A stretch of 64,000 nucleotides of DNA from Dehalococcoidia bacterium. GTDB lineage: Bacteria > Chloroflexota > Dehalococcoidia > Bin125. The notes beneath the pieces were generated by a model, which worked only from the letters and a program-made list of their open reading frames with translations, searched no databases and was not told the DNA's origin. Position numbers and translations under genes: made by a program. The stretch spans positions 2,880,001 through 2,944,000 of the forward strand of contig OY820591.1 of the NCBI GenBank assembly GCA_963555985.3, in the 5' to 3' direction. Shown in pieces: positions 1 to 62,175 of the stretch. The number at the start of each line of letters is the position of its first letter. Positions within the stretch are counted from its first letter, which is position 1.

Positions 1-479
1 ACGCAGTAGGGATCGTCGGCGTCGGCGAGGTAGTAGGAGACAGAGCCGGTGGTATGTCCGGGGGTGTGCAGGACCTCGAAGGCGGAGCCGCCGAGCAGGA
101 TCGTTTCGCCGCCCTGGAGGTGGATGTCGATGTCGAGGTCGGTTTCGAGCCAGGGGTGCAGCTCATCCGCCACTGTGTCGGAGGCGTGCATGTAGTAGGG
201 GACGTTTGGTCCGAGGCGCTCGCGCAGTTCGTGGTAGGACTTGATGTGGTCGGGGTGGGAGTGGGTGAAGAGGACCATCTTGGGGGTGGCGCCGGAGTCT
301 TCGAGACCGGCCATGACCAGTTCGTGCTGGGCGACGGCATCGATGATGGCGGCGTCGCCGGTGCCTTTGTCGACGAGCACGAAGGCGTTGTTCTCGAACG
401 GCCCCCAGGACATCTGCATCACCACCACTCGATGCAGGACGCGCAGCACCCGCGACTCGGCGCGAATTTCCAGACTCAT
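1..479 (-). CDS. MBL-fold metallo-hydrolase (partial, runs off window start)
   Basis: Manual translation from ATG at 479 (GGAGAGG RBS) gives MSLEIRAES...FTHSHPDHI...LHTPGHTTGSVSY, i.e. the HxHxDH and TPGH motifs. Not in the ORF track because it is truncated. Confidence 0.85.
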   Translation of the reverse strand, partial: MSLEIRAESRVLRVLHRVVVMQMSWGPFENNAFVLVDKGTGDAAIIDAVAQHELVMAGLEDSGATPKMVLFTHSHPDHIKSYHELRERLGPNVPYYMHASDTVADELHPWLETDLDIDIHLQGGETILLGGSAFEVLHTPGHTTGSVSYYLADADDPYC

Positions 480-579
480 GATCGCCTCTCCCGGTTTGAT
501 GCCGCCGCCGGATTCGGCGCGCGACGGCTTGGGGGGCAGTCTATGTCAGTGGGGGTCGTGTGCGGGGGGAGAAGGTTTA

Positions 580-1135
580 AGGCACGGTAGGGACTGGGCG
601 GTCGCGGTTCGCGGCCTGACGGGGGCTGTGAGAAAAAAAACGAGGGGGTCGCCGCTTGCGGTCGGGGGATTACTGCGGCTCTTCCTCTTCTTCGAGGCTG
701 TCGTCGTCGTCCGGCAGGGGCACGTCTTCGCCGCGCATGAAGGCGACGACTTCGTCGTAGATCTCGAACATCGGGTGGAGGTGGAAGTCCTTCTGCTGTT
801 CAGGAGTGAGGGGGGCTTCGGGCAGTCTGGGGGAGTGGTTGGGTTGGGGTTTGGGGCGTGGCTCGGGATGGGGTTCGAGGTCGAGGGCGTGGTGGATCTC
901 GCGGGTCTTGGCGTTGGAAGGGGAGAGTTCGCGGATGAGGAGGGCGAGCGCTTTGATGCGGACGTGTCCGGCTTCGTTGGAGTGGGCGATTTGGCCGACG
1001 CCGGTCATGCTGGACTGGTAGGTGTGGGGGAAGGGCATGGGGTTGTTCCTTTCTTGGGAACCTGTGTTTTGGATAGGTGAGTTTATATGTTCTGATATTC
1101 GGCTTGCAAGTTGGTTGGGTGTGTTGCGGTTGTCG
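580..1135 (-). repeat. Duplicated orphan cassette, copy 1 (copy 2 at ~50081-50630)
   Basis: Near-identical 90-nt tail AGGCACGGTAGGGACTGGGCGGTCGCGGTTCGCGGCC...GGGGGATTA, homologous ORF and homologous promoter/RBS in both copies. Confidence 0.9.
670..1038 (-). CDS. Hypothetical 122-aa protein (paralog of 50171-50527)
   Basis: AAGAAAGGAAC RBS. Frame is conserved in the second copy with an in-frame indel. Pro-rich middle and acidic C-terminus. Confidence 0.7.
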   Translation of the reverse strand: MPFPHTYQSSMTGVGQIAHSNEAGHVRIKALALLIRELSPSNAKTREIHHALDLEPHPEPRPKPQPNHSPRLPEAPLTPEQQKDFHLHPMFEIYDEVVAFMRGEDVPLPDDDDSLEEEEEPQ

Positions 1136-1154
1136 GAAGGTTGGGTGCTTGATG

Positions 1155-1497
1155 TGGCGTTTCACCCCCTCTGCCCCTCTGGGGCATCTCCCCCTTGAGG
1201 GGGAGAGGTTTCTTGGGGGAGGTGGGTTGGGGGTTGGGTGCTGGTCACGGCGAGATACCCGCGACGGAGCGCGGGTATGACGGAAGTAGGGTTGGGGTGC
1301 GGGGCGTTTGTGCTGGGTGTGGCGTTCTCACCCCCTCTGTCACTGCGTGACATCTCCCTCCCCGCCTGCGCGGGGACAGGCTCTCAAGGGGGAGATTTTT
1401 CTTGGGGGAGATTTTTTGGGAGAGGTGGGTTGGGTGCTGGTCACGGCGAGTGATCCCCGCCTGCGCGGGGACAGGCTCCGCGGCGGGGCGCGGGTAG
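1155..1497. repeat. Island of REP-like palindromic repeats
   Basis: CCCCCTCTG...CATCTCCCCC-TTGA-GGGGGAGA units, GATACCCGCG..CGCGGGTATGAC units and CCCCGCCTGCGCGGGGACAGG mini-hairpins, all recurring elsewhere in the window. Confidence 0.9.
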
Positions 1498-1507
1498 GCG
1501 GGGCGGG

Positions 1508-1999
1508 CTAGAGGCGGCCCTCGGCGTATTGGTGGAGGAGGGCTCGGAGGTGGTTGATTTCTCCGGCGTGGTAGACGTCGTGGATGGCGACGGCGTCGAG
1601 CAGATCTCGGGTTTGCCATTGCTCGCCCCAGTAGGTGGGGCGGAGCTTGCGCAACTCCTCGTCGTCTTTGAGTTCGAGCACGGCTTCGATGGCCTGGATG
1701 TGGGCTTCTTCCAGCCATTCGAGCAGCAGCTCGAACGAGGCTTCGGCGACGATGGGTTCTCGATCCCAGGTGGTCCAGAAGGTGTGGGAGCGGTCGCCGA
1801 AGCCGTGGTTGACGTGCATCACCTTGACCGCGCCGCAGTGGAAGATCAGGTCGCGCATGGTGCGTCCGCCGCCTGGCACGACTTTGTCGAGATCATCGCC
1901 GGTGACGGAGGAGAGATTGGCAAGCAGCGAGTGCTCGGGCTTGATCCGGAAGGATTGTTCCAGTTGCCAGGTGAGATGTTCGAGGACGGTGCGTCCCAC
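1508..1999 (-). CDS. DinB/YfiT superfamily protein
   Basis: RTMRDLIFHC and AIHDVYHAGEI metal-binding His pattern. GTG start at 1999 chosen to avoid overlap with the upstream gene. Confidence 0.8.
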   Translation of the reverse strand: MGRTVLEHLTWQLEQSFRIKPEHSLLANLSSVTGDDLDKVVPGGGRTMRDLIFHCGAVKVMHVNHGFGDRSHTFWTTWDREPIVAEASFELLLEWLEEAHIQAIEAVLELKDDEELRKLRPTYWGEQWQTRDLLDAVAIHDVYHAGEINHLRALLHQYAEGRL

Positions 2000-2040
2000 G
2001 GTTGGCGAAACTCCGATTCGCTTGTCGTCGCTGGTGGCGC

Positions 2041-3918
<1,878 letters not shown>

Positions 3919-4084
3919 GATGCGGAAGGTCGTCGCTTTCGGCTCGGCTGGCCACTGGCGTATTCACGCTATCAGAGCGCCGCTAGTGCGAGCGGGCGGC
4001 GGGATTTCCCGCGAAACACTGGTGATCGTGGGTTTGGGCTGTTCGGTCTTGTTCGGGTTTGTTCGGTGATGTTTGGCTCTCGCC

Positions 4085-4480
4085 GGGCGGCCGGGTCCGA
4101 GCCTCGCCGACCAGGCAGTCGGATGGATTCCGGCCCCCGCCTACGCGGGGGCAGGCTGCGGAGACGTTTGTGAAATCCTCGATCTGGGCGTTTCGTCATT
4201 CTTGCGAACGCGGGGATCCACGTCTCACTCGATACGCTGGATGGATTCCCGCCTACGGAGGCCTTTGCAAATTGGCATTCCCGCTGCTCTCGTCATTCCA
4301 GCGAAAGCTGGAATCTCGCCCGACCAGATAGACCGAACTCCGAACGAGATTCCAGGTCAAGCCTGGAATGACGGAAATGGGGATTTTGCAAAGGCCTCCC
4401 TATGCGGGAATGACGGAAACGGGAGTTTTGCACAAGCCTCCCTGCGCGGGAACGACGGAATTTGGGATTACGCGCACAGC
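4085..4480. repeat. REP island with nested MITEs
   Basis: GATTCC(C/A)G..C(G/T)GGAATGAC hairpins interleaved with GAG(G/A)C(C/G)TTTG(C/T)(A/G)AAA ends. Confidence 0.9.
4258..4398 (+). mobile_element. 141-bp MITE inserted in a REP hairpin
   Basis: TIRs GAGGCCTTTGCAAA/TTTGCAAAGGCCTC, flanked by CCTACG/CCTATG. Near-identical inverted copy at 18502-18641. Confidence 0.8.
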
Positions 4481-4577
4481 TGGCCATGGGCCAGCTGCGA
4501 TTGTTCCGCATCAACTGCTTCTTTCGCTGCGCACTGTCAATTTTGAATGTCTCGCCTATCTGGGTAGACTGCGTGCC

Positions 4578-5060
4578 GTGTCTTCGTCAGAGTTCTCCCA
4601 GCGAGATTTTCCGTCGGCTTTCCAGCCTCTTCCAGCAGTCAGCCCGGACGCGCCGCATTGGGGCGAGCGTTTTGCTCGGGAGATGCCGTCGATGGAGCCG
4701 CCGTACTACGGGGTGAATGTGGCGGATGTGCGCCGGGAGCACTACGACGCGATCTTCCAGAACATCGAACAGCAGGTGCAGGGTGCGGAGCTCCTGTTCG
4801 GCGGCCGGCTGCACTTCTTCTCGGCGACGGACTACGGCGAGCTTCGGCGCGTGATGTTCATCCTCTACTTCGAGACCTTCCCTGACACAGAGACCATCCT
4901 TGACACACTGGGCGGACTAGGGCTCGACCGGGCCGACGACGTGACCCAGTTTCCCGACATCTGGACAGGGTCCGAGCTCTGGACGGAGTTCACACGCCTG
5001 GCGGAGGGCTACACGTGGTGGGTCATGCCTGCGCTGCCAGTGAACGAGCCCCCGCAGTAG
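4578..5060 (+). CDS. Hypothetical protein
   Basis: Coding-like codon usage. GTG lies 7 nt after TAGACT, with TTGAAT 16 nt further upstream. The longer ORF-track start lies in repeats. Confidence 0.6.
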   Translation: MSSSEFSQRDFPSAFQPLPAVSPDAPHWGERFAREMPSMEPPYYGVNVADVRREHYDAIFQNIEQQVQGAELLFGGRLHFFSATDYGELRRVMFILYFETFPDTETILDTLGGLGLDRADDVTQFPDIWTGSELWTEFTRLAEGYTWWVMPALPVNEPPQ

Positions 5061-5200
5061 CCGACCCTTCTGGTTCTCTCCGTTGTTCTCGCTGCTCGGG
5101 TCTGCGGACGGGAGTGTGGGAATCCTGTATGATGTGAGTGCGCAGGGATGCGCCTGGCGTTATTTGGCGGGCGACCGCCCCGGACTGATCTGGCGGCCGT

Positions 5201-6232
5201 ATGGCCGCCATTTCGTATCTGCTGAATTGGGTCGCGGCGATGGCGACCATGGATCAAGGCAGCGGCGGCGAATGGTGGCGGACTGCGCTGGAGCGTGCGC
5301 TCGCGCCGGTGCAGCGGCTGCGGCGGGGAATTTTTCAGTCGCTCTCGACGCTGGAGCTTCTGCTGGGCGGGTTTGGCCTGGTTGCGGCGCTGGTCACGGC
5401 TGCGTTGTTGTCGCCGGTGCTGGGGTTGTTGCCGGGCGCGGCGGGGGAGTTCGTGCCGATTGGGGTGGCGATCTTGCTGTCGCCGATCGGGATCGGGGTG
5501 GCGCTGGGTCGGCGGGCTGAGGTGGAGCGCTTTGTCAACACCGTGCGCGGGCGCGTGGACGAGGTGACCTCAACGGTCGGCGTTGGACGCCGTCCGCCGC
5601 CGCAGGAGGCGATCCTCGACACCAGCGCGATCATCGACGGTCGGATCGGCGAAGTGGCGCTGACGGGTTTCATCCTGGCCGAACTGGTGGTGCCCCGCTT
5701 CGTGCTGGACGAGTTGCGCCGCGTCGCCGACAGCAGCGACCGGAACAAGCGTCAGCGCGGACGGGCGGGACTGGAGCTGCTGGCACGGTTGCAGGCGGAC
5801 GAGTCGGTGCCCACGGTGATCGAGGATCCGCCTGCGAACGAATCCGATGCCGAGGCTGACGATGTTGACGCTCGCCTGGTGCGGATGGCGCTGGATCGGG
5901 GCGCGGCACTGATCTCGACCGACTCGAATCTGATTCGGGTGGCGGCGCTGGAGGGCGTGCGCACGCTCAACCTCAACGCGCTCGCCAATGCAGTGAAGAC
6001 GAACGTGTTGCCGGGCGAACTCTTGCAGATCGAACTGCTTGAGCCCGGCAGGGATCCGGATCAGGCGGTGGGCTATCTGCCCGACGGGACGATGGTGGTC
6101 GTCGAAGAGGCCGCCGCGCTGGTGGGAGAGACGCGCAGCGTCGCGGTCAAACGTGTGATCCAGACCCAGGCGGGACGGCTGGTGTTCGCGCGTCTGGTGG
6201 ATGAGGCGATGGACATCGCGGAGGCGTCGTGA
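5201..6232 (+). CDS. Membrane PIN/TRAM domain protein (YacL-like)
   Basis: TM segments, ILDTSAIIDGRI PIN motif, GYLPDGTMVVVE TRAM motif, located before ispD. Confidence 0.9.
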   Translation: MAAISYLLNWVAAMATMDQGSGGEWWRTALERALAPVQRLRRGIFQSLSTLELLLGGFGLVAALVTAALLSPVLGLLPGAAGEFVPIGVAILLSPIGIGVALGRRAEVERFVNTVRGRVDEVTSTVGVGRRPPPQEAILDTSAIIDGRIGEVALTGFILAELVVPRFVLDELRRVADSSDRNKRQRGRAGLELLARLQADESVPTVIEDPPANESDAEADDVDARLVRMALDRGAALISTDSNLIRVAALEGVRTLNLNALANAVKTNVLPGELLQIELLEPGRDPDQAVGYLPDGTMVVVEEAAALVGETRSVAVKRVIQTQAGRLVFARLVDEAMDIAEAS

Positions 6233-7395
6233 GCGTCGGCGCGATTGTGCTCGCGGCCGGTTCGAGCCGGCGCATGGGCGGCGGCGACAAACTGCTCGCG
6301 CCATTACTGGGCCGACCGGTGCTCGGCTGGACGCTGCGCGCGTTCGAGCGCTGCGACGCGGTGGATCAGCTCGTGGTGGTCACGTCGGCTGCAAATCGCG
6401 CGGAGATCGCGGATCTGTGTACGGGGATACAGAAGCTGCGGGCGCTCGTGCTCGGCGGGCGGGAGCGTCAGGATTCGGTCGCCAACGGTCTGGCGGCGCT
6501 GGCAAACGTAGAAATCGTCGCGATCCATGATGGGGCGCGGCCGCTGATCACGAGTGAGGCGATTGCGCGGGGAGTTGATTTGGCGCGTGAGTGCGGCGCG
6601 GCGATTGCCGGCGGTCCGGTCGCGGACACGATCAAGCTGGTGGACGAGGAGGAACGGATCGCGTCTACGCCGGATCGGTCTCGGCTTCGCGCCGCTGCCA
6701 CGCCGCAGATCTTTCGGCGCGAATTGCTGTTGCAGGCGCACGCAGCGGCGCGCCGGGACGGCGTGCTCGCCACCGACGATGCTGCGCTGGTGGAACAGAT
6801 CGGGGTTCCGGTGATTGTCTATGACAGCGGCGCGCCCAATCCCAAGATCACGACGCCGGATGATCTGACGGTTGCGGCGGCGTTGCTATCAGCACGCGAG
6901 GGGGTTGCGGGCACGATCCGCAGCGGGATTGGGATTGATACGCACCGCTTTGAATCGGGGCGGCCGCTGATCCTGGGCGGAGTGCAGATCCCCGGCCACG
7001 ACGGTCTGGCGGGGCATTCCGATGCGGACGCGCTCACGCACGCGATCATCGACGCGCTGCTGGGCGCTGCCGGTCTGGGCGATATCGGGGCGCATTTTGC
7101 GCCGGGCGATCCGGCCTGGGCGGGAGCGGACTCGATCGTGATGTTGGAGTTGGTCGTCGCCAAGCTGGCCGAGATTGGCGCAACGCCAACGTCGGTCGAT
7201 GCGACCGTGATCGCGGAGCGCCCTCGGCTGCGTCCGTGGATCGCGGCGATGCGCGAGCGTCTGGCTGTCCCGCTTGGGTTGAGCGTTGAGGCGGTGAATG
7301 TCAAGGCGACGACAGCCGAGGGCATGGGCGCGTTGGGGCGGGCAGAAGGGGTCGCCGTGCACGCGATCGCCAACGTCACGTATTCGAGAATCTGA
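6229..7395 (+). CDS. ispDF: Bifunctional IspD/IspF
   Basis: LAAGSSRRMG, IHDGARP and TDDAALVE (IspD); GIDTHRF, HSDADALTHAIIDALLGA and NVKATT (IspF). Confidence 0.95.
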   Translation: MSVGAIVLAAGSSRRMGGGDKLLAPLLGRPVLGWTLRAFERCDAVDQLVVVTSAANRAEIADLCTGIQKLRALVLGGRERQDSVANGLAALANVEIVAIHDGARPLITSEAIARGVDLARECGAAIAGGPVADTIKLVDEEERIASTPDRSRLRAAATPQIFRRELLLQAHAAARRDGVLATDDAALVEQIGVPVIVYDSGAPNPKITTPDDLTVAAALLSAREGVAGTIRSGIGIDTHRFESGRPLILGGVQIPGHDGLAGHSDADALTHAIIDALLGAAGLGDIGAHFAPGDPAWAGADSIVMLELVVAKLAEIGATPTSVDATVIAERPRLRPWIAAMRERLAVPLGLSVEAVNVKATTAEGMGALGRAEGVAVHAIANVTYSRI

Positions 7396-7409
7396 GTAGG
7401 CTGCATGGT

Positions 7410-8114
7410 ATGGGCGCGCTACAGACGTTGACCGCATGGACAAAGACCTTCGTCGAAGAAGTGCGGGCCGATATCGCCTTCACGATGGATCGCGATCCGG
7501 CGGCGACTTCGGCGCTGGAGGTGTTGCTCGCGTATCCGGGGATTCACGCGCTGATGCTGCACCGCGTCTCCTCAACCCTGCTGCGAGCGGAGATTCCTGT
7601 GGCTCCGCGTTTGTTGTCGCACGTGGGTCGGTGTCTGACCGGAATCGAGATTCATCCCGGAGCGCAGATCTCCTCACCCTGCCTGATCGATCATGGGATG
7701 GGTGTCGTGATTGGGGAGACCGCGCGGCTTGGGCAGCGTTGTCACCTGCATCAAGGGGTCACGCTGGGCGGCACGTCGACGATGCGCAAACAGCGGCATC
7801 CGACGTTCGGCGACGACGTGTTGGTCGGTGCGGGCGCCTCGATCATCGGCGCGGTCTCCATCGGGAACGGGGCGAGGATTGGCGCGGGGGCAGTGGTGGT
7901 CTCGAACGTGCCGCCGCATTCCACGGTGGTCGGGGTGCCCGGTCACGTGGTGGCGTATTACGACCCGGGTGACGACACCGTGCTGCGTTTGCCCGACCCC
8001 GAGCATGACCGGATCGAGCACCTGGAGGCGGAATTCGCGGAGCTGCGGTCGGAGTTGCGGGGTCTGCAAGATCGGGCAGCCGAGCGTCATGGTGAGACGG
8101 CGGCGGGCGGCTGA
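7410..8114 (+). CDS. cysE: Serine O-acetyltransferase
   Basis: RDPAA, TGIEIHPGA, IDHGMGVVIGETA, hexapeptide repeats. Confidence 0.95.
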   Translation: MGALQTLTAWTKTFVEEVRADIAFTMDRDPAATSALEVLLAYPGIHALMLHRVSSTLLRAEIPVAPRLLSHVGRCLTGIEIHPGAQISSPCLIDHGMGVVIGETARLGQRCHLHQGVTLGGTSTMRKQRHPTFGDDVLVGAGASIIGAVSIGNGARIGAGAVVVSNVPPHSTVVGVPGHVVAYYDPGDDTVLRLPDPEHDRIEHLEAEFAELRSELRGLQDRAAERHGETAAGG

Positions 8115-8147
8115 GGGGGTCTGCGGTAGCTCTGCCGGAGTAGGGCG

Positions 8148-8201
8148 GACCCCCCTCTGTCACTTCGTGACATCTCCCCCCGCACTGCGGGGAGAGAGGG
8201 G
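8148..8201. repeat. REP-like double hairpin
   Basis: CCCCCTCTGTCACTTCGTGACATCTCCCCCCGCACTGCGGGGAGAG, the same unit as at 47319, 35785 (inverted) and 51060. Confidence 0.85.
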
Positions 8202-8317
8202 AATCCCAATCGGCGCTCATTGACCGAGCCGGGGCTATTCGCTTGCATTGGCTGCGTTCAATAGCGTGCGTATGAGCGCGCCGGAGGCGCCCAGAGTGCT
8301 TCGAGGAGGGATCGCAC

Positions 8318-9745
<1,428 letters not shown>

Positions 9746-9771
9746 TAGCGCTGGTTGCACAGAACCCGCTA

Positions 9772-10191
9772 CTCCGTCATTGCCGCGCTCCGCCGCAGCC
9801 TGCCCCTGGCCTGAACAGAGGGCAATCTCGCCGAGCGATCCCCGCCTTCGGAGGGCTTTGCAACAAACCATCCCGGTGCGTTGGGGCCTAGGGAGGGACG
9901 GATCGTGCGATCTGAGGTCGGCGGTACGACCAGATTGGGAGTGGCTTCATACTTGGTTGCTTCGAGATTCCCGCCTACGCGGGAATGACGGAAATGGGGA
10001 TTTTGCAAAGGCCTCCCTACGCGGGGATGACGGATGTGGTTGCGGATCTCGTGATGTGAGGTCGGCGGTACGACCAGATTGGGAGTGGCTTCATACTTGG
10101 TTGCTTCGAGATTCCCGCCTACGCGGGAATGACGGAAATGGGGATTTTGCAAACGTCTCCAAAGGCGGGGATGACGGATGTGGTTGCGGAT
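9772..10191. repeat. REP/MITE island with 144-bp tandem duplication
   Basis: 9913-10047 is repeated at 10057-10191. MITE-like ends at 9851 and 10015 are flanked by CCTTCG/CCTACG. Confidence 0.85.
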
Positions 10192-10203
10192 GTCGTTCGG
10201 GCC

Positions 10204-11439: not shown

Positions 11440-11575
11440 CCGTCTCTTCCTCGGCGACCGAGCGCGTTCCGCTGGAGCGCATCGTAGATCAGCGCGCGTC
11501 TCGCTTGCGCTCGAACCAGGGCCCGTTCAGGTTGGCGCTTGCTGTTACACCGTCATGGCGACCGTCAGTCTGAAC

Positions 11576-12301: not shown

Positions 12302-12348
12302 GGTAGTCCTTTGCGGGGTGACCGGATCATGGAACGATTGCAACGCGC

Positions 12349-12376
12349 AGGATACGCGGCCGGTTGTTTGCGTCAA
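12349..12376 (-). promoter_or_regulatory. Sigma70-type promoter
   Basis: TTGACG-N16-TATCCT upstream of the GTG at 12301. Confidence 0.5.
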
Positions 12377-12937: not shown

Positions 12938-14140
<1,203 letters not shown>

Positions 14141-48080: not shown

Positions 48081-48087
48081 GTCCTCA

Positions 48088-50630: not shown

Positions 50631-50631
50631 T

Positions 50632-51110: not shown

Positions 51111-51286
51111 GAGGATGGAGGAGTGGGGGTTTGGGAGTTTGTTGCGGGGGTTGCGTTGGTTTTGGGTGGGGTGGGCGTAGACTGGGGGTTGCCTTCTGTT
51201 CGCGCGCTGCTTGGGCGGCAGCGGCTTCGTTGCCTGGTTTTGCGGCTGGGTTGGGCGAAGTCTCCGGGTGCGAAGGGTTCGTTCGT

Positions 51287-52549: not shown

Positions 52550-52595
52550 AGCGAGAGAGATTCGCCGGCGACGGCGGGAGTATGAGGAGCGAGCG

Positions 52596-52889
52596 ATGGC
52601 CCAGGCATACGAGATGATGGTGGTGCTGCACCCGGAAGTGAGCGGTGAGGGCGTGGAGGCGCGGATGGCGCAGTTGCGCGGTTTGCTCACCGAACACGGG
52701 AACAATGTGAGCGACGTGATCGATTGGGGCCGGCGGCGTCTGGCGTATCCGATTCGGCAGTCGTTTGAGGGTCACTACCTGATCGCGCACTATGAGGCGG
52801 GCGCGGCGGCGCGGCGGTCGGAGTTGGAGCAGGCGCTGTTGATCGACGAGCAGGTGCTGCGGCATCTGATTGTGCGTCGAGATCGGTAG
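52596..52889 (+). CDS. rpsF: 30S ribosomal protein S6
   Basis: YEMMVVL.P, WGRRRLAYPI, VLRHLIV. Confidence 0.95.
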   Translation: MAQAYEMMVVLHPEVSGEGVEARMAQLRGLLTEHGNNVSDVIDWGRRRLAYPIRQSFEGHYLIAHYEAGAAARRSELEQALLIDEQVLRHLIVRRDR

Positions 52890-52927
52890 GCTTGGCCGTA
52901 AGAGGGGATCGCGCACGAGCCACTGTC

Positions 52928-53068
52928 CGGTCATTCCCAGAAAGCAAGGACGCAAATGGCGCAGCCGGTCGGTATGGATTCCCGCCTTCGCGGGAATGAC
53001 GCAAATGGGGATTTTGCACAGGCCTCCCTGCGCGGGAATGACGGAGATGGGAGTTTGGCAACGGTCTC
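52928..53068. repeat. REP units and MITE right ends inside rpsF-ssb operon
   Basis: GATTCCCGCCTTCGCGGGAATGAC; TTTTGCACAGGCCTC-CCTGCG; TTTGGCAACGGTCTC. Confidence 0.85.
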
Positions 53069-53095
53069 CGAGGGCGTTTGGAAGGACGGCGGGCA

Positions 53096-53527
53096 ATGGC
53101 GAGCCTGAACAAAGTCATGATCATCGGCAATCTTGGGGGCGATCCTGAGATGCGCTTCACAGCGAGCGGTCAGGCTGTGGCGAATTTCAATGTGGCCTGC
53201 AATCGCCGCTATACGACTCGTGACGGCGACCAGCGCGATGAAACCGAGTGGGTGCGGGTCGTCTGCTGGGCGCGACTGGCAGAGATTGCCGGCCAGTACT
53301 TGAGCAAGGGCCGCCAAGTCTATGTTGAGGGGCGATTGCAGACACGCCAGTGGGAAGATCGGGACGGGAACACCCGCTATACGACTGAAGTGGTCGCGCG
53401 TGAGATGCAGATGCTGGGCAGTCGCGGCGGCGGGGGCGGGGACTTTGGGGGCGACGATTTCGGGGGCGGACAACAATACGGCGGTGGCGGCGGCTATCAG
53501 GACGCCGGCGATTTGCCGTTTGAGTAG
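53096..53527 (+). CDS. ssb: Single-stranded DNA-binding protein
   Basis: [26 protein letters not shown]-terminal DLPF. Confidence 0.97.
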
Positions 53528-53580
53528 AGACAGCCAGCAGCGAGCAAGAGGCCGCGCGAAGCGGCCGGGAGAGTGATGCG

Positions 53581-54138
53581 ATGACGACTCCAGAAGAAGT
53601 GACTGAGGCCCCTGCCGCGCCTGTGGAGGAGGCGCCAACCGCGCCTGCTCCAGAACCGGCTGCGCCGGAACCGACGCCGGTGACGCCGTTGCGGGTGACG
53701 CCGGCGCCGACCAGCGGTGAGCGGGTGCCGCAGATGATCGAGCGGACGCGGCGGCGGGGGCGTCGCCGCCGGGCGCCGGTGTTTACGCCGCAGGAAGTGA
53801 AGAGCATCGACTACAAGGATGTGGACAAGCTGAAGAAGCTGCTCTCGGATCGTGGTCGGATCGAGCCGCGCCGGAAGACGGGTCTGACGGCGAAGGATCA
53901 GCGCAAGCTGGCGCGGGAGATCAAGCGTGCGCGTCATGTGGCGCTGCTGCCGTACACGGCGGAGCACATGCGCCAGACTTCGCGGTTCCGGATGGTGTCG
54001 CGGATGGCTCAGCGGGCGCTGCGGCGGGATTATGAGCCGGTCGCGCCTGCGCCAGAGCCGGTCGCGCCGGAGGCTGATCCTGCGCCGGTGGCGGGCGAGG
54101 CGGCGCCTGTGTCCGCTGCGCCGGAAGCGGCGGAATAA
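53581..54138 (+). CDS. rpsR: 30S ribosomal protein S18 with long extensions
   Basis: IDYKDV...[11 protein letters not shown]...[17 protein letters not shown] core; follows rpsF-ssb. Confidence 0.92.
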
Positions 54139-55440
54139 ATGGGTGAGGCGACGGGCTCGTCATTGGGGGTCGGCCTGCTTGGGCTGGGCGTGGTCGGGCG
54201 GGCGGTGTATGACGCGCTGGAGCGGAGCGCGGCGGCGTATCGAGCGCGGGCCGGGCGTGGTTTGGAGGTTCGCGCGGCGGCGGTGCGCGATGTCGCTCGG
54301 CGGGGCGATCTTGCGGCTGCGGGATTGTCGCTCTCGGACGATCCGATTGCCGTCGTGAGGCGGGATGATGTTGATCTGGTGGTGGAATTGATGGGCGGGG
54401 AGTCGCCGGCGGCGGAGTGTATTGAGGCGGCGCTGTCGGCGGGGAAGTCGGTGGTGACCGCCAATAAGGAAGTGATGGCGAAACACGGGCCGGCGCTGTT
54501 GGCGCTGGCCGAGCAGCAGGGGGCTGCGCTGCGCTATGAGGCGAGCGTGGGCGGGGGGATTCCGATCATCGGGGTGCTTCAGAGCGAGTTGCAGGCGAAT
54601 CAGATTGAGTCGGTGCGGGCGATTATCAACGGGACGACGAACTACATGATCACGGAGATGTCGAGCGGGGGCATTTCCTACGAGGATGCGCTTGCCGAGG
54701 CGCAGCGGCTGGGGTATGCGGAGGCGGATCCGACAAATGACGTGGACGGGATCGATGCGGCGTACAAGCTGGCGATTCTGGCTTCGCTGGCGTTTCGGGT
54801 TCGGGTGGCTCCTGAGGATGTGCACTGCGAGGGGATTCGGGCGTTGACGGGGCGGGACTTTGAGCACGCGCAGGCGCTTGGCTATGTGATTCGGATGCTG
54901 GCGACGGCTCGGCGGACGGCGCGGGGGCTTGATTTGCGCGTGCATCCGACGCTGATTCCGGAGGAGGATGCGATGGCGCGAGTGGACGGGGTGCTGAACG
55001 CGGTGGCGGTGACGGGCGATCTGTTGGGTTCGGTGGTGCTGGAAGGTCCCGGGGCGGGTGCCGGGGCGACGGCGAGCGCGGTGGTGGCGGACATTCTGGA
55101 GGCGGCGCGGTCAGGCGGTCAGGCGGCTGAATCGGCGCCGTTGGAGGCCGCGCCTCGTTTGGCTCCGCTGGAGGAGCTCTGTCTGCGGACGTATCTGCGG
55201 CTGGAAGTGCCGGATCGGGCGGGGGTGTTGGCGGAGCTTGGGCGTGCGTTTGCGGCGGAAGGGGTGAGTATTGCGTCGGTGCTGCAAACGCCGCATCCGG
55301 AGCGTGAGCAGTCGGCGGATCTGATCATCACGACCCATGCGAGCGAAGACGGGGCGATGGATCGGGTGTTGGCGGCGCTTGAGCAGTCGGAATCGGTGTT
55401 GGAGATCGGTGTGCGTCTGCGGATCGAGGATGCGGCATGA
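54139..55440 (+). CDS. hom: Homoserine dehydrogenase
   Basis: GLGVVG, VTANK, EASVGGGIP, NGTTNY, GYAEADP, C-terminal ACT domain. Confidence 0.96.
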   Translation: MGEATGSSLGVGLLGLGVVGRAVYDALERSAAAYRARAGRGLEVRAAAVRDVARRGDLAAAGLSLSDDPIAVVRRDDVDLVVELMGGESPAAECIEAALSAGKSVVTANKEVMAKHGPALLALAEQQGAALRYEASVGGGIPIIGVLQSELQANQIESVRAIINGTTNYMITEMSSGGISYEDALAEAQRLGYAEADPTNDVDGIDAAYKLAILASLAFRVRVAPEDVHCEGIRALTGRDFEHAQALGYVIRMLATARRTARGLDLRVHPTLIPEEDAMARVDGVLNAVAVTGDLLGSVVLEGPGAGAGATASAVVADILEAARSGGQAAESAPLEAAPRLAPLEELCLRTYLRLEVPDRAGVLAELGRAFAAEGVSIASVLQTPHPEREQSADLIITTHASEDGAMDRVLAALEQSESVLEIGVRLRIEDAA

Positions 55441-56447
55441 GTTCGTTCCGCAATTCGGAGACCGCCGACGCGCGCTTGATGCGGCTTGAGGAGCAGTTGG
55501 CCGGGCTGCGTGATCGGATCGGCGAGCTGGTACAGCACGAGATTCGCGACGAACGCGAGATTGCGGCGCTGGATGAGCGTATCCGCGAGATTGAAGGGAA
55601 CGCGGTCAGGCTGTCGTCTCAGGTGAACTCGCTCTCGCGGGTGATGGAGGAGATTCAGACGCTGCGCGAGCGTTTGGGGCGGTTCCAGAACGCGCTTGGG
55701 GAGGGTCAGGAGCAGGTCGATGTCGGGATTCGGCGGCTGCGCCAGGAGATGGAGGCGGAGCGGGATCAACTGGGCGACGCGGATCGGCGGCTGCAATCGC
55801 TTGAGGGCGGAACCAGCGAGTTGCGGGATCGCTTGGCGACTTTTGACGATGCGCAGCGGCGCACCAATACCGAGTCGGCTGAGCTTGCGCATCGTTTGAG
55901 TCAGATCGAAAGCACGCTGGAGGCGCTAGGCGCGCGGATTTCGGCGAACGCGGACGGTATCCGTCGGGCGTTCGCGGAGAATCGGACGCTTGAATCGCGG
56001 ATCGAGGGTTTGGAGCGGCAGTCGCGGGAGTTGACCGAGCGGCTTGAGCTCTCGAATCAGAGTGTGCGGCGGGTGACGGAGAGTTCGGAGCGCTGGGATG
56101 ATCTGGCGACGAATGTGGAGGCGATGCGCTCGCGGGTTGACGACGCTCTGCGTGTGCTGGACGAGGCGAAGAGTGTGGCGGCGAGCGTTCGGCGAGGGTA
56201 TGAGGCGTTGGAGGAACGGATCGGCAATATCGAGCGTTCGGCGGAACAGCTCAGGGCGCGGGACTCGCGGCGGGAGCGTGCGGTGGCGGAGCTCGATGAC
56301 AAGATTTCGAGTCTGACCGAACTGGCGGCTGAGGATCAGGATCGTTTCATCAACTTGCAGGAGCAGATCCGGCGGCGGCAGATTGACGATCTGGAGCAGG
56401 AGATTCGGACGCTGAAGGCGTACATGCGGGTGCGCTCCGATGCCTGA
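55437..56447 (+). CDS. Long coiled-coil hypothetical protein
   Basis: Heptad-rich E/R/L sequence lacking Pro; overlaps both hom and thrC. Confidence 0.8.
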
Positions 56448-57540
56448 ACTGATTACCGCCGCCGATCCGCCCATGAGCCGGGGCGTGTTGGAGCGTTACG
56501 CGGAGTGGTTGCCGCTGACGCCGGCTACGCCGCGGATCACGCTGGGGGAGGGAGATACGCCGCTGGTGCGGGCGAAGAGTCTGGAAGCGCGTACGGGGGC
56601 GGCTGAGGCGTGGCTCAAGCTTGAGCTGTGCAATCCGACGGGATCGTTCAAGGATCGGGGGATGGTGGTAGCGGTGGCGAAGGCGCTGGAGGAGGGGGCG
56701 ACGGCGGTGCTCTGCGCTTCGACCGGGAATACGAGCGCTTCGGCGGCGGCTTATGCGGCTCGCTGCGGGTTGCAGGCGTTCGTGCTGGTGCCAGGCGGCA
56801 AGATCGCGCAGGGCAAACTGGCGCAGGCGGTGGCGTATGGAGCTCGGGTGCTTGCGATCGACGGCAATTTCGACGATGCGCTGCGGCTTGCGCAGGCGCT
56901 GACCGAGCGGCTGCCGATTGCGCTGGTCAATTCGGTGAACCCGTACCGGATCGCGGGTCAGAAGACGGCGGCGATGGAGATCGCCGACGCGCTCGGCGAT
57001 GCTCCCGATTTGCATTGCATTCCAGTGGGCAACGCCGGCAACATCACCGCGTATTGGGCCGGGTACAGCGACTATTTCCATGCGGAACGAGTAGAGCGGC
57101 GGCCGCGAATGCTTGGCGTGCAGGCTTCGGGGGCGGCTCCGCTGGTGACGGGGATGCCGGTTGCTGAACCGGAGACGATTGCGACGGCGATCCGGATCGG
57201 TAATCCAGCTTCCTGGGCTGGGGCTGTGGCTGCGCGCGACGAGTCGGATGGGGCGATCATTGCGGTGGACGACGAGGAGATTCTTGACGCCTATCGGCTG
57301 CTTGCGGCGGAAGAGGGTGTCTTCTGCGAGCCTGCGTCGGCGGCGTCGGTCGCTGGCTTGCTGGCCCAAGCCAGCGCCAATCACAGCGAATCGCTGGATG
57401 GCAAGCGGGTGGTTTGCACGATCACGGGACACGGACTCAAGGATCCGGAGCGAGCCGTGAGCGCGTTTGAGGCGGACCTGATTGAGTTGGACGCCGGCTA
57501 CGCCGAAGTCGCACGAGCGGTTGAGGAGCGGCTCCGATGA
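56440..57540 (+). CDS. thrC: Threonine synthase
   Basis: [39 protein letters not shown]. Confidence 0.96.
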
Positions 57541-58112
57541 GCGACCTGATCGACCTGACCCGAGCCGAAGCGGCGGTGCGTGAGCTCTTGCTCGCGTTGG
57601 GCGAAGATCCCGAGCGCGAGGGCTTGCGCGAGACACCGCGGCGAGTGGCCGCCGCCTTCGCCGAGACCTTGGGCGGACGCGAGGTCGATCTCCCGAATCT
57701 GTTGCAGGTCGGCTTCGACGAAGGCCACGACGAGATGGTGATCCTGCGCGATATTCCCTTCTTCTCCACCTGTGAACACCACCTGATGCCGTTTCACGGG
57801 ATCGCGCACGTAGCCTATGTACCGCGGGGCCGCGTGGTTGGTCTGTCCAAATTAGCGCGGCTGGTCGACGCGGTGGCGCGGCGACCGCAGCTCCAGGAAC
57901 GGCTGACGGCGCAGATCGCAGACATCATGATGTCAACGCTGGAGCCTGACGGCGCGGCAGTGGCAGTGGAAGCGGAACACCTCTGTATGCAGATGCGAGG
58001 GATCAGGAAGCCCGGTTCGCGGATGTTGACTTCAGCGATGCGGGGGACGTTCCGCACGCAGGAGGCGACGCGGGCGGAGTTTCTCTCGCTGGTGGGGACG
58101 CAACGGCTGTGA
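57537..58112 (+). CDS. folE: GTP cyclohydrolase I
   Basis: [35 protein letters not shown]. Confidence 0.97.
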
Positions 58113-59131
58113 CGTTGACGGTCGTGCAAGGCGGCTACGCAGAGTTGCGCGAGCGCTGGTCGCGGCTGGCGCGGAGCCAGCGCGCGTCCGGTGCGCCGTT
58201 CACCGCGCCTGAATTCGGGGAGGTCTGGTGGAGCGTCTTCGGTCCCACTCACTGCGGTGAGCTCGAATTGTTGGGTCTGGAAGACGGCAGGGGCGAGTTG
58301 GCGGGGATGATTCCGCTGTTGCGATGCAGCGAGGATGCGCCGGAGGGGGCTGTGTTCGGATTTGCGGGCGATCACGAAATCTCCGACTATCTCGGGCTCT
58401 CCGCAGCCGACGGGCGTGAGCGCGAGGTAGTGGCTGCGCTATTCGAGCATTTTGATCAGCGCGGCGCCGTCAGCGCCGACCTACGCGGTCTCGCGCCGGG
58501 TTCGCCCTGGCCCGAGCTGATCGCAGCCGAGGGTGCGGCTCGCGGTTGGACGGTCGAGTTGAGCGACGAAGCTGTTTGTCCGGTCGTCGATATCAGCGGT
58601 GGTTGGGAGGCCTACCTGGGGCGGTTGCGTTCGCGCGACCGGCGTGAGGTGCGGCGCAAGCTACGCGGACTGCGGCAGTTGCGGGGCGCGGTTTCCTTCG
58701 CAGCATTTGACGAACCCGCCGAGATCACGGAGCGATTGCCGCTGTTCATGGCGATGATGGCCGAGTCTCGGGGGGACAAGGCGGCGTTCCTGACTGAGCA
58801 GATGCAGGCGTTCTTCGGCGATCTGACCGAATCGCTGGCGGCGGCCGGCTGGGCCCGGATGTACCTGATGTCGATCTCGGGCGACCCTGCGGCGATGGTG
58901 TTGTGTTTTGTCGTCGGCGACGAGCTGTTGTTGTACAACAGCGGATATGATCCACGCTTCCGCGAGCTGTCGGCGGGGCTGGCGTCGAAGGTGCTCTGCA
59001 TCCGCGATGCGGTCGAACGCGGACTGACGCGCGTCAATTTCCTGCGCGGCGACGAGCCGTACAAGTTTGAGTTGGGCGGTGAGCCGGCGATCGTGCGCCG
59101 GGCCCAACTGCGCCGGAGGGAGGCATCGTGA
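58109..59131 (+). CDS. GNAT-fold protein (CelD/BcsL, Acetyltransf_6-like)
   Basis: [13 protein letters not shown]...[21 protein letters not shown]. Confidence 0.85.
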
Positions 59132-60420
59132 AGCGTCGCCTGGCGGTGATTTCGACGCATAGCTCTCCGCTCGCCCGGGTCGGCACGACCAAAGCCGGCG
59201 GGATGAACGTGTACATCGACGAACTTTCACGCGAGCTCACGAGGCTGGGCTGGGACGTGGACATCTACACGCGCTGGGATCGGCCCGACTTGCCCGAGGT
59301 GATCGAAATTCAACCGGGCATGACGGTGTTTCACGTGAAACAGGGACCGCCCGAGCCGCTCTCGCCGATGGCGACGGCGGACTACATCGAGGAATTCACC
59401 GTCGGCGCTCGTGATCTCGCTGAATGCCACGAGCGGCGATACGACCTGGTGCATTCGCACTATTGGATCTCGGGTCTGAGCGGAGCTGCGCTCGCGCAAG
59501 GCTGGAACGCGCCGCACGCGACGATGTTCCACACTCTGGGCGCGATGAAGAATCACTACGGTCAGACGGAGCCCGAGCCGGCGGTGCGGATCGAGGGCGA
59601 GCGGCGGGTAGCAGCCTGCGCCGATGCGATTATCTGCGCGACCACGCATGAAGAGCGGTTTTTGATCGAGCATTACGGGGCGGACCCGACCCGTTTGCGT
59701 GTGGTTCCCTGTGGGATTGATCTGGGCCTCTTTGGGCCGGGGAACCGTTCCTCTGCGGAGGCAGTTCTGCGCGAGCAAGCGCCGGAATTGGGCGTTGATG
59801 ACGGCCCGGGCATTCTCTTCGTGGGTCGATTGGAACCGCTCAAGGGCGCCGACCTGCTTGTGCGGGCGCTGCCTTTGATCGACCACGAGCTCAAGCCGTC
59901 GCTCTGGATCGTCGGCGGGGACGAACGCGATCGGGGTGAGCGCGAACGGCTGCGGAGTCTGGCGCGAGCGCAGGGGGTGGATTCGCAGGTGCGATTCCTG
60001 AATGCCGCGCCGCGCTCGCTGCTGCCCGATCTCTATCGAGCAGCAGCCGTCTGTGCGATGCCGTCGTACTACGAGAGCTTTGGTCTGGTAGCGGTGGAGG
60101 CGATGGCAGTGGGTACGCCGGTGGTAGCGACGCGGGTGGGCGGACTTGCGAGTACGGTCAGCGACGGTCGGACGGGGCTACTGGTGGATGCGCGCCGGCC
60201 GGAGTCGTTTGCGGCTGCGCTCGAAGGCTTGCTGGCGGATCCCGATCTGCGCGAGCGGATGGGGACGACGGCGGCGGTGGCGATGAATCGTTTCGCCTGG
60301 CCGCGGGTGGCGGAGGGTATTCTCCGCACCTACGACGAATTGCTGCGGGCTGGAAGCTCGCGGCGGTCGCCGTGCGCAGAGGCGGAGGATGCGCTGCTTG
60401 CGGGCGCGGTTGGCCGCTGA
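59128..60420 (+). CDS. MshA-like GT4 glycosyltransferase
   Basis: HSSPL...AGGMNVY, HSHYWISG, HTLG..K, VGRLEPLKG, ESFGLVAVEA. Confidence 0.88.
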   Translation: MKRRLAVISTHSSPLARVGTTKAGGMNVYIDELSRELTRLGWDVDIYTRWDRPDLPEVIEIQPGMTVFHVKQGPPEPLSPMATADYIEEFTVGARDLAECHERRYDLVHSHYWISGLSGAALAQGWNAPHATMFHTLGAMKNHYGQTEPEPAVRIEGERRVAACADAIICATTHEERFLIEHYGADPTRLRVVPCGIDLGLFGPGNRSSAEAVLREQAPELGVDDGPGILFVGRLEPLKGADLLVRALPLIDHELKPSLWIVGGDERDRGERERLRSLARAQGVDSQVRFLNAAPRSLLPDLYRAAAVCAMPSYYESFGLVAVEAMAVGTPVVATRVGGLASTVSDGRTGLLVDARRPESFAAALEGLLADPDLRERMGTTAAVAMNRFAWPRVAEGILRTYDELLRAGSSRRSPCAEAEDALLAGAVGR

Positions 60421-60458
60421 CGGCCGGCGGCGTTCGATTCAGGGTGAGAGGACGAGCG

Positions 60459-61247
60459 ATGGCCGAATCCGAGGCGGCGGAGGCTCGTCGGGCGCTGGTG
60501 GTGATGGCTCATCCCGACGACATCGAGTTCACCTGCGGCGGTACGGTCGCTCAGCTTGCCGATGACGGTTGGGAGGTCACGTTCTGCCTAGTCACGAGCG
60601 GGGATAAGGGCACCAAGGATCCAGCGTTGGGTCCTGCCGATCTTGGGGCGGTGCGGGAGGCCGAGCAGGAAGCGGCGGCGGCTGAACTGGGTGTGCAGCG
60701 CTGTATTTTTCTGCGCGTGCCGGACGGAGCGGTTGAGGACAGTCCCGAATTTCGGAGCACGCTCGTGCGGGTGCTGCGTGAGGTGCGGCCTGAGATTCTG
60801 ATCACGTGGGACGGATATCGGGGTTTCAATCACCGCGATCATCGGACGGTGGGGATCGCCTCGCTCGATGCCGCCTTCCCGCTGGCGCGGAACGCCAACA
60901 GCTATGCCGAACACGTTGCGCAGGGGCTAGAGCCGCATCGGGTGAATACGGTCTTGCTGGCGGGGAGCCGTGAGCCGAACTTCTACGTTGACGTGCGAGA
61001 TCAGCTCGAGCGCCGGATCGATGCGCTGCTGCATCATGCGTCGCAGGTACAGGCGGCGAATCGTGAGGAAATGGCGAAACGGATGCGTCAGCGTCAGCAG
61101 CAGGCGGCGCGGGAGGGGCGTGTACCGTGGGCGGAGGGGTTCCGACGGATGCTGTTCGGGGAGGCCCGAGCTCCGCGTCGGTCGGTAGCGCTGGTAGAGG
61201 AGCGCAAGGCTGCTGAAAAGGCGGCGGCCGCGGCAGAGGAGGGCTGA
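60459..61247 (+). CDS. PIG-L family deacetylase (MshB/BshB-like)
   Basis: AHPDDIE, TSGDKG, R..EQ, HRDH. Confidence 0.88.
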   Translation: MAESEAAEARRALVVMAHPDDIEFTCGGTVAQLADDGWEVTFCLVTSGDKGTKDPALGPADLGAVREAEQEAAAAELGVQRCIFLRVPDGAVEDSPEFRSTLVRVLREVRPEILITWDGYRGFNHRDHRTVGIASLDAAFPLARNANSYAEHVAQGLEPHRVNTVLLAGSREPNFYVDVRDQLERRIDALLHHASQVQAANREEMAKRMRQRQQQAAREGRVPWAEGFRRMLFGEARAPRRSVALVEERKAAEKAAAAAEEG

Positions 61248-61248
61248 G

Positions 61249-62175
61249 GTGGAGGACGGGGCGCTGTTCCTGCTCTGGGCGAGCTTTGCGGCGGCGATCT
61301 GCGCGGCGGTGGTGTACATCCTCTATGCGGCGCAGCCTCGGCTGACGCGGGCGTTTGCGTTCAATCGCGCGGCTGCCACCGATCCGGCGACCGTTTCGGG
61401 CGTTGCGCTCAGTGTGTCTCCGCTGCGATCGCCGACGCTGGGCGGGATGGCGACGCTGAGCGTTTGGACAGCGGCGACATTGGGGATCGTTGGCTTGGTC
61501 TTGCGGAGTGTCGCTCTGCAACACGCGCCGTACAGCAATCTGTTCGAGTTCTCGATGGCGTTCGGGATCGCGATTGTGCTGCTCTACGCGATCTTTGAGA
61601 TGCGGTTTGGGACGCGGTTGGCGGGGACGTTCGTGCTGCCGGTCGCTTGCGGCTTGTACGGGAGCGCGCTGGCGTTTCCCAGCGAGGGACAGGATGTGTT
61701 GGTGCCGGCGTTGCAGAGTCCGACGCTGCTGACGATTCATGTGGCGCTGATGATTCTCTCCTATGCGGTGCTGGCGGTCGCGTTTGGGGCGTCGGTGATG
61801 CATTTGGCTCAGGGTTGGCCCGATCGAGTGGCGAAGGCGGGTGGGCGGTTCGAGTTTCTGCCCTCGGCGGAGCGGTGCGACCAACTGACTTACCGCGCCG
61901 TCCTGATTGGGTTTCCGCTGCTGGCTGGGGGGGTTGCGCTGGGGGCGTTCTGGGCGAATGACGCCTGGGGGCGGTATTGGGGTTGGGATCCGAAGGAGAC
62001 GGCGGCGCTGGTGACGTGGCTGATTTTCGCTGTGTACATCCATGGTCGAGGGCTGCGGCAATTGCGGGGGGCGCGCAAGGCGTGGATCGTGGTGGCGGGC
62101 TTTGCGGCGGTGCTGTTTACCTATTTGGGTGTGAATCTCTGGATCAGCGGCTTGCACTCCTACGCAGGGGTCTGA
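61249..62175 (+). CDS. Cytochrome c biogenesis protein CcsA/CcsB (system II)
   Basis: PALQS..L.IHV, WANDAWGRYWGWDPKE, GLHSYA. Confidence 0.93.
   Translation: MEDGALFLLWASFAAAICAAVVYILYAAQPRLTRAFAFNRAAATDPATVSGVALSVSPLRSPTLGGMATLSVWTAATLGIVGLVLRSVALQHAPYSNLFEFSMAFGIAIVLLYAIFEMRFGTRLAGTFVLPVACGLYGSALAFPSEGQDVLVPALQSPTLLTIHVALMILSYAVLAVAFGASVMHLAQGWPDRVAKAGGRFEFLPSAERCDQLTYRAVLIGFPLLAGGVALGAFWANDAWGRYWGWDPKETAALVTWLIFAVYIHGRGLRQLRGARKAWIVVAGFAAVLFTYLGVNLWISGLHSYAGV

Follow-up and report, generated by a model that had tools for sequence, protein, structure and literature searches.

Strand asymmetry of base composition has been described in several systems. In vertebrate mitochondrial DNA it forms a gradient with the time spent single-stranded, and the skew N-domains of mammalian chromosomes jump at replication origins. 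In bacterial replication skew the leading strand is rich in G and T, and according to its abstract SkewDB finds a typical bacterial effect of about 2.5%. The orientation of IS200/IS605-type elements tracks the local skew sign, for which the accepted reason is their dependence on a strand being single-stranded (PMC3971601, citing Ton-Hoang 2010; PMC6006769). Here we analysed a stretch of 64,000 nucleotides (referred to as the window) from the genome of a Dehalococcoidia bacterium (GenBank assembly GCA_963555985.3, contig OY820591.1; G000:C1:2880001-2944000), together with the oriented intergenic repeat islands and the orphan open reading frame (ORF) that it carries. The chromosome showed a mosaic strand skew that is real and unusual. 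The bias is carried by the DNA strand regardless of gene direction, and its sign is tracked by the orientation of the islands. For a mosaic, origin-independent bacterial skew we found no description in the open-access literature, supplements being outside the scope of the search.

The G000 assembly has 3.33 Mb with 65% GC, in one contig of 3.15 Mb (C1) and ten small contigs. The window encoded ordinary core genes with Pfam-confirmed identities, among them tRNA-Thr/Tyr/Thr followed by tuf-secE-nusG-rplKAJL, fpg, an R3H ATPase gene, dnaE, a moaD/E fusion, glyA, rpsF-ssb-rpsR, hom and a thrC-like gene. Genes throughout the genome came from a custom skew-agnostic caller that is blind to G versus C at third positions, not from a curated annotation, and our main measure was the + strand G/C skew at four-fold degenerate sites of each gene. 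By this measure the window was divided into the following domains:

1-12400: + strand G/T-rich, skew +0.26 to +0.74 for genes on either strand; - strand genes include a radical-SAM gene (2041-3918, confirmed with Pfam) and a DinB-like gene (1508-1999)
12900-19830: + strand C/A-rich, skew -0.30 to -0.55, tuf-secE-nusG-rplK-rplA-rplJ-rplL; exceptions are tuf (+0.10) and rplK (0.00)
22950-28050: + strand G-rich, skew +0.38 to +0.49, all genes on the - strand including fpg; no island
30250-39000: + strand C-rich, skew -0.13 to -0.46, + strand genes including the R3H ATPase gene (33778-35445)
39100-45150: near-neutral, skew -0.05 to +0.03, includes dnaE
45780-62175: strongest G/T-rich + strand domain, skew +0.14 to +0.76

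The initial annotation of this DNA had described the + strand as G/T-rich around 0.5-1.5 kb and 48-56 kb, and as C/A-rich around 17-19 kb and 33-36 kb. All-site values agreed with this at 1-2000 (GC skew +0.27, AT skew -0.23), at 48-56 kb (GC skew +0.25 to +0.39, with the maximum of +0.39 at 49-51 kb) and at 33-37 kb (GC skew -0.13 to -0.19, AT skew +0.08 to +0.13). At 17-19 kb the AT skew (+0.17) and the four-fold skew of the genes (-0.31 to -0.55) fitted the description, while the all-site GC skew was just -0.06. Opposite synonymous codons in genes of the same strand were likewise borne out by counts in four + strand genes. glyA used GCG 53 and GCC 10 times, GTG 27 and GTC 4, CGG 18 and CGC 7, TAT 7 and TAC 6, and hom used GCG 63 and GCC 7 times. 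The R3H ATPase gene used GCC 44 and GCG 20 times, GTC 28 and GTG 17, CGC 47 and CGG 4, GAA 22 and GAG 19, and rplL used GCC 16 and GCG 3, GTC 11 and GTG 3. In the domain at 45780-62175 the skew of the + strand was common to + strand genes (comF-like, glyA, rpsF, rpsR, hom, thrC-like) and - strand genes (moaD/E, an orphan ORF); the coding skew of the Pfam-confirmed moaD/E gene on the - strand was -0.76, directly beside + strand genes at +0.68 to +0.74. One gene of this domain, ssb (53078-53527, +), had a four-fold skew of -0.13 versus +0.67 to +0.75 in its operon neighbours rpsF, rpsR and hom, possibly through recent replacement or a separate codon constraint.

Over the whole genome, the per-gene skew had a standard deviation (sd) of 0.388 versus a sampling sd of 0.088 (2647 genes), and its distribution was broad and unimodal, not two-state. 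Between neighbouring genes, skew correlated at r=0.78 when both had the same orientation (1855 pairs). When the orientations were opposite, + strand skew still agreed (r=+0.54) and coding-strand skew was opposed (r=-0.64, 791 pairs), so that, as in the window genes described above, the sign did not follow the coding strand of each gene. Intergenic skew tracked four-fold skew (r=0.75, slope 0.33, 556 windows of 5 kb), and in the same 5-kb windows four-fold AT skew opposed GC skew (r=-0.59), a keto-type pattern. The bias also reached the proteins, G-rich coding strands going with more V, W and L and with less K, N, H and Q; the proposal that it reshapes kilobases of core genes was supported. A cause at the level of the gene, namely translational selection or transcription-coupled mutation acting on G-ending versus C-ending codons, would fit the C-rich coding strands (mean -0.126; 65% of genes) and the position of the biggest jumps at convergent or divergent gene pairs. 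However, the orientation effect was small (step of +0.18 at 396 convergent and -0.19 at 395 divergent pairs, coefficient -0.11) and added only about 8% of explained variance to the 56% explained by a smooth strand field, genes in the minority orientation obeyed this field (r=0.68, n=70), intergenic DNA tracked it too, and the same gene was oppositely skewed among relatives: glyA orthologues, located by tblastn, ranged from -0.82 to +0.68 across 12 genomes of the family. We therefore consider a gene-level cause extremely improbable as the main source of the bias.

The mosaic resembles replication skew in being strand-bound, in appearing at four-fold and intergenic sites and, in G000, in combining G with T. 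It differs in lacking two arms or a switch at dnaA, in its roughly 190 signed domains (99 positive and 89 negative runs in G000) and in a four-fold amplitude of up to ±0.8. Bins of 50 kb changed sign all along C1, and the autocorrelation of the skew was gone by 30 genes. No two-arm origin/terminus pattern was detected in G000 or in three single-contig relatives; dnaA lay within a run of -0.35 to -0.54 in the relative G007 and within a run of +0.34 to +0.69 in G005, with no sign flip at the gene in either (oriC itself was not mapped), and both halves of the G005 chromosome averaged about +0.08 in a hand sum of 20-kb pieces.

An ordinary replication skew could in principle have been scrambled by many inversions, which inverted repeat islands could mediate, or the assembly, which is of metagenome type with 7.5% reported contamination, could be chimeric or concatenated. 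Both had been named by the initial annotation as grounds on which its reading would be refuted, and neither refuted it. The relative G014 was colinear with G000 over more than 100 kb (G014 local 125-238 kb with G000 3.014-2.901 Mb, 286-377 kb with 2.900-2.809 Mb), and the G000 skew changed sign several times within one such block; the coding-strand skew of orthologues in the colinear region correlated at only r=0.18 (n=279). Short-read contigs from runs X1 and X2 of one study matched the unique parts of window positions 40-60 kb with 0 differences, and those of run X3 matched in shorter pieces with at most 1 difference, breaks occurring at repeats only. The small contigs C2-C11 were all strain haplotigs of C1 regions with 95-99% identity (about 170 kb aligned, 3607 single-nucleotide polymorphisms (SNPs), four-fold divergence about 5.4%), which probably accounts for the contamination value, and they shared the same skewed four-fold composition. 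C1 itself looks circular, as both its ends adjoin in the G014 sequence. Together, the flips inside colinear stretches and the agreement of the short-read contigs exclude inversions and chimerism as the source; with the unimodal distribution and the single-contig relatives that carry no replichore signal, we rate the scrambled or chimeric scenario as very improbable. The domains are not replichores, inversions, assembly errors or products of codon selection.

Self-comparison of the intergenic DNA of G000 revealed 465 repeat islands with a total of 87 kb. They are built from a unit similar to repetitive extragenic palindromic (REP) sequences, termed R1 (GAGAT, a stem of 8-9 bp, ATGACGG), from a double hairpin termed R2 (DNA fold z-scores down to -5.5), and from a cassette containing an orphan ORF of 122 aa. 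In the window we found:

581-669, 4134-4476, 8137-8205, 9769-10183 and 20587-20725, + strand: smaller islands
670-1038, - strand: 122-aa orphan ORF, a family member embedded in islands
1039-1496, + strand: island of R2 and R1 units, fold z -2.9 and -3.9
18345-19073, - strand: island in a C-rich domain, inverted copy of the 4244-4386 island (143 nt, 97%)
35501-36120, - strand: island in a C-rich domain, local skew -0.30
47311-47375, + strand: single R2 double hairpin 3' of moaD/E, z -5.5
50082-51134, + strand: largest island of the window, with a 205-bp tandem duplication, flanking an orphan ORF
50171-50527, - strand: second copy of the orphan ORF
52971-53076, + strand: further island, between rpsF and ssb

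The elements were intergenic in 95% of matches and consisted of conserved flanks around a stable hairpin, in hundreds of clustered copies (424 R1 cores versus 26 for the reversed control). Islands had one consistent polarity (94% of the weight of signed alignments), with units mostly in tandem head-to-tail; some inverted pairs also occurred inside islands (for example I25). Perfectly phased tandem duplications at 9909-10196 (144 bp x2, 95%) and 50687-51068 (205 bp x1.9, 96%) indicate that islands grow by local tandem duplication. Screening against Rfam at the gathering score returned tRNAs only, and in the islands a single sub-threshold match (whalefall-1, 21 bits versus a cut-off of 37). The elements share with REP/BIME/REPIN sequences the intergenic imperfect palindromes, conserved flanks, many clustered copies and patchy occurrence among relatives. 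They differ from REP/REPIN sequences with RAYT in that no RAYT was found in six genomes, and apparently in their mostly head-to-tail arrangement instead of inverted doublets. To our knowledge no coupling to skew has been described for REP elements, although this was not searched for specifically.

Island orientation and skew were closely coupled. The polarity of the skew followed the orientation of the islands, as had been proposed, for 12 of 12 islands in the window and for 82% of the 465 in the genome (r=0.71); for the R2 motif alone, 91% of 101 matches agreed with the local sign (r=0.86). Orientation could be predicted from skew alone with an accuracy of 0.826 and from genes alone with 0.643, and gene orientation added nothing. 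In a regression of skew on island position and orientation, as suggested by the initial annotation, an additive kernel explained 44% of the variance in 1-kb bins, compared to at most 0.088 in 100 orientation shuffles and at most 0.048 in 100 circular shifts. The kernel had its maximum of about 0.16 at the island and reached about 5 kb to the 5' side and 6-18 kb to the 3' side along the G-rich strand, with about five times more weight downstream than upstream (1.47 versus 0.29). Island density per 4 kb rose from 0.33-0.45 where |skew| was below 0.2 to 1.06 where it exceeded 0.5. The described increase of the bias toward the islands was confirmed.

G000 has 28 copies of the orphan ORF. Of the 27 that lie on C1, each was antiparallel to the surrounding islands and 24 lay on the locally C-rich strand. 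The ORF showed no match in Pfam or NCBIfam, and a collection of 5.8 billion proteins yielded 13 matches, of which 10 came from its own contig, 1 close match from a contig of 25.5 kb and 2 weak ones from the ENA. With a pN/pS ratio (nonsynonymous to synonymous differences) of 0.51 and a median pS of 0.22 among copies, the ORF probably encodes a real protein under weak constraint. This protein has an acidic C-terminal tail. Of the suggestion that islands, cassette and REPs form one system, the physical part stands, as the cassette is a component of the islands. As a seed of skew the cassette fares less well: by a rough estimate, which gene conversion could weaken, its copies appear to have diverged too recently for a skew of about 0.4 to have accumulated around them.

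The comparison with relatives that carry or lack the repeats used partial samples of G014, G007 and G005; G005 was covered by 60 pieces of 20 kb around the whole chromosome, with the repeat count taken from 400 kb. A strand-bound push toward G at synonymous and intergenic sites is present in G000 and in these three relatives from two other genera of the family, in domains of about 10-20 kb in G000 and 100-250 kb in the relatives; those of G000 are pushed toward T as well. Skew of orthologues correlated between G007 and G014 (r=0.50, n=227) and was uncorrelated between G007 and G000 (r=0.00, n=254). Four-fold identity between genera was 0.53-0.60 versus 0.42-0.50 expected from composition, so four-fold sites have largely turned over and the skew must be actively maintained in each lineage and is not an inherited fossil.

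G005 contained both motifs at background counts only (44 repeat bases in 400 kb), and nevertheless showed a skew sd of 0.50 with domains of ±0.5 to 0.77 (up to ±0.8), each 100-250 kb long. Strong mosaic asymmetry therefore exists without islands. In G007, with 1 R2 match and 876 R1 cores, the skew had an sd of 0.50 and ran from -0.73 to +0.82 in 10-kb pieces; it stayed at +0.6 to +0.8 over 40-kb stretches that lacked any REP core. Skew and REP orientation were coupled in this genome (164 cores, r=0.52; 20 full R1 units, r=0.79), and the orientation of its REP clusters also correlated with the skew of the orthologues in G014 (r=0.45), which is largely without these REPs. This indicates that the broad field is older than the repeats or independent of them. 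G014, with 108 R2 matches and 51 R1 cores, showed strand-bound skew over domains about 100 kb long within one stretch of 400 kb, and values mostly near 0 elsewhere. Agreement with the local sign was limited to 6 of 10 for its R2 elements and to 8 of 15 for its counterparts of G000 islands; the R2 behind moaD/E occupied the same relative position and orientation as in the window and was there discordant with the local skew. The claim that the islands seed the bias was not upheld by these genomes.

Of 41 family genomes, 16 contained R2, and high R1-core counts were confined to genera g1, g7 and g8. Within a single genus the R2 counts were 108, 1 and 0, and R1-core counts ranged from 18 to 1696 in genus g8, a patchiness typical for mobile repeats that spread and later become extinct. 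In a sister-family genome (G024), all-site skew stayed within ±0.035 in eight 10-kb windows; the mosaic may thus be limited to one family, judging from this small sample.

Further likenesses appear in comparison to eukaryotic systems. The four-fold amplitude and the linear gradients over a domain in G005 and G007 are comparable to the asymmetry of vertebrate mitochondrial DNA, from which the bacterial chromosome differs by its many domains of both signs and its inconstant relation to AT skew; we know of no strand-displacement replication in the G000 lineage. A tendency of up-jumps to be sharper than declines in G000 and a sawtooth-like profile in G007 would resemble the N-domains, with marginal statistics, and sharp up-jumps above 0.6 outnumbered down-jumps in G000 (30 versus 18). 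Isolated island groups in G000 differ from N-domains in that they give one-signed bumps and not sign flips.

At four-fold sites, C<->G changes made up 25-32% of the SNPs between haplotigs. With four-fold GC held near 86%, G versus C is the main free variable, and this may be why the skew is so large. Unpolarised haplotig SNPs gave a similar turnover per site for C/T (0.033) and A/G (0.029). Raw singletons in the cassette copies included 31 G>A and 13 G>T among 81; an AT-biased mutation together with a composition held at about 86% GC implies that a strong GC-favouring force must act.

Our preferred reading, to which we assign a probability of roughly 45%, is a family-wide, locus-bound bias of one strand per domain in which the islands are oriented passengers and not the root cause, both the bias and the spread of repeats depending on the same strand being single-stranded, or re-synthesised, more often. 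Insertion or retention of hairpin islands would favour one orientation, in which a particular strand of the island coincides with the locally G-rich strand. The islands are enriched in strongly skewed DNA, toward its 5' edge. We would guess that the exposure stems from locally unidirectional DNA synthesis, through dispersed restart or strand displacement, and not from forks starting at oriC. Islands might additionally act as local amplifiers with an increment of about 0.15-0.25 each. The single-strand logic is borrowed from IS200/IS605-type elements and the lagging-strand template. As in those elements, repeat orientation in G000 and G007 correlates with the local skew sign; the G000 elements differ in being short non-autonomous hairpin repeats with an orphan ORF, in being coupled to 10-kb domains instead of replichores, and in their polar profile.

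Several results weigh against this reading. A search for the Y1/RAYT transposase domain (PF01797), which had matches in 6 of 14 named genomes as controls, returned 0 matches in G000, G007, G048, G046, G005 and G014, including the three REP-richest, and the route by single-stranded transposition is for this reason an analogy. The relation of GC to AT skew was inconsistent in G005, unlike the keto-type G000, which also speaks against cytosine deamination as a simple source. Among 16 cassette copies, polarised singletons (81 substitutions) gave no significant complementary asymmetry, the set being underpowered, and the sawtooth test was marginal (increment skewness about 0.2 in G000; most confidence intervals in G007 included 0). 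Around the islands themselves, skew was higher downstream than upstream by 0.082±0.015 (331 islands) versus -0.017±0.010 at 854 control gaps oriented by local sign. G000 islands sat on bumps of 0.231±0.013 (n=463) over the background at 8-30 kb, as did G007 islands (0.153±0.042, n=49), and the G000 bumps were nearly gone in G014 orthologues (0.059±0.028 versus 0.298±0.043, n=57); the bump test limited to G007 genes with orthologues (0.03±0.05) was without power. A causal effect of the islands would fit bumps and polar profile at least as well.

Such an effect is at the core of a model built on the initial annotation, in which islands are cis-acting sites of a strand-asymmetric process, with nicking followed by resynthesis or displacement of one strand in 3' direction along the G-rich strand, that creates the flanking skew, the cassette ORF being a factor in it. 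The strength and downstream weight of the island kernel argue for this model, as do the island-specific polarity and lineage-specific bumps just described and the one-signed bump of about 0.25, without sign flip, at isolated island groups (n=24). Islands were also constrained, with a SNP density of 1.9% versus 5.4% at four-fold sites and 21 of 24 kept between haplotypes, and the REP-core load ranked with skew sd, from G007 (876; 0.50) over G000 (424; 0.39) to G014 (51; mostly near 0). Nevertheless, we regard the model as unlikely. The repeat-free domains of G005, the long REP-free stretches of G007 and the poor concordance in G014 all speak against it, and 56% of the variance in G000 was unlinked to islands, for example in the island-free domain at 23-28 kb. 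The low cassette pS also stands against it, as does four-fold divergence between haplotypes, which was not higher in strongly skewed stretches (0.055 versus 0.062), and the orphan ORF was nearly absent from 40 other genomes of the family (weak matches in 4). A further reading, which we likewise hold to be unlikely, would have dispersed polar start sites, dozens to hundreds per chromosome, from which the chromosomes of this family are copied or repaired; REP-like islands would mark or provide these sites in G000, one strand of each domain would be single-stranded for much longer or re-synthesised more frequently, gradients would arise as in mitochondria, and repeat orientation would be steered by the process.

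The domains of G005, unrelated to origin, genes or repeats, also fit a self-reinforcing polar process without fixed sites, driven for example by putative Rho-escaping G-rich transcripts and R-loops that would expose the G-rich strand, or by Chi-like polar recombination in which the repair of heteroduplexes is biased. Symmetry breaking and drift over time would then form the domains, and selection would favour terminator-like islands that point along the G-rich strand. The broad unimodal distribution, domain patterns partly kept within a genus and lost between genera, and the 65% of genes with a C-rich coding strand agree with it. So does the placement of all 9 terminator-like hairpins at 44-56 kb on the G-rich strand, but their number did not exceed that in shuffles (7.3±3.1), and the skew extends downstream of the islands, which is the wrong side for terminators. 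We consider this process quite improbable. A promoter scan run together with the terminator scan gave 0 promoter-like sites.

Some further features of the window and genome were observed. The gene at 45780-47309 (+) lies immediately ahead of the place where the skew of the window rises most strongly. It encodes a protein of 509 aa whose C-terminal half contains a DnaC/IstB/DnaA-like AAA+ domain, with weaker AAA matches nearer the N-terminus; the best NCBIfam match, PRK08116, was under the cut-off. Weak Bac_DnaA matches near glyA in G014, G007 and G005 suggest that this protein is kept at the locus. An 875-aa ORF antisense to the comF-like gene and an adjoining gene was rejected as a miscall of a codon-usage gene caller in skewed DNA. 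NusG (14866-15783, +) is long with 305 aa; its NusG domain begins at residue 111 and is thus preceded by about 110 additional N-terminal residues. In G014 tuf is present twice, behind fusA and within the tRNA-tuf-secE cluster (local 189010 and 292740); both copies match the single G000 tuf (12938-14140, +) best, and no tuf follows fusA in G000 (63535 onward). GC dips to 0.61-0.63 at 21000-24000 and 26586-27397, where two small + strand ORFs have four-fold GC of 0.68-0.73 and weak coding scores; the ORFs or DNA at these dips may be foreign or non-coding. The G000 proteome is acidic and lysine-poor (D+E 13.3%, K 1.7%, (D+E)/(K+R)=1.42), which could mean a salt-adapted organism.

Skew is a standard tool to locate origins, rearrangements and mis-assemblies, and in the family of G000 it would mislead on all three. 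As the bias inverts the synonymous codons of neighbouring core genes and shifts amino acids, it distorts inferences on codon usage, expression and phylogeny. Restriction of the mosaic to one family, suggested by the small G024 sample, points to gain or loss of a specific function that comparative genomics might reveal. If dispersed polar exposure of single strands or resynthesis of DNA is indeed the cause, these genomes would give a sequence-level map of the process and a direct route to testing how REP-like repeats choose their orientation.

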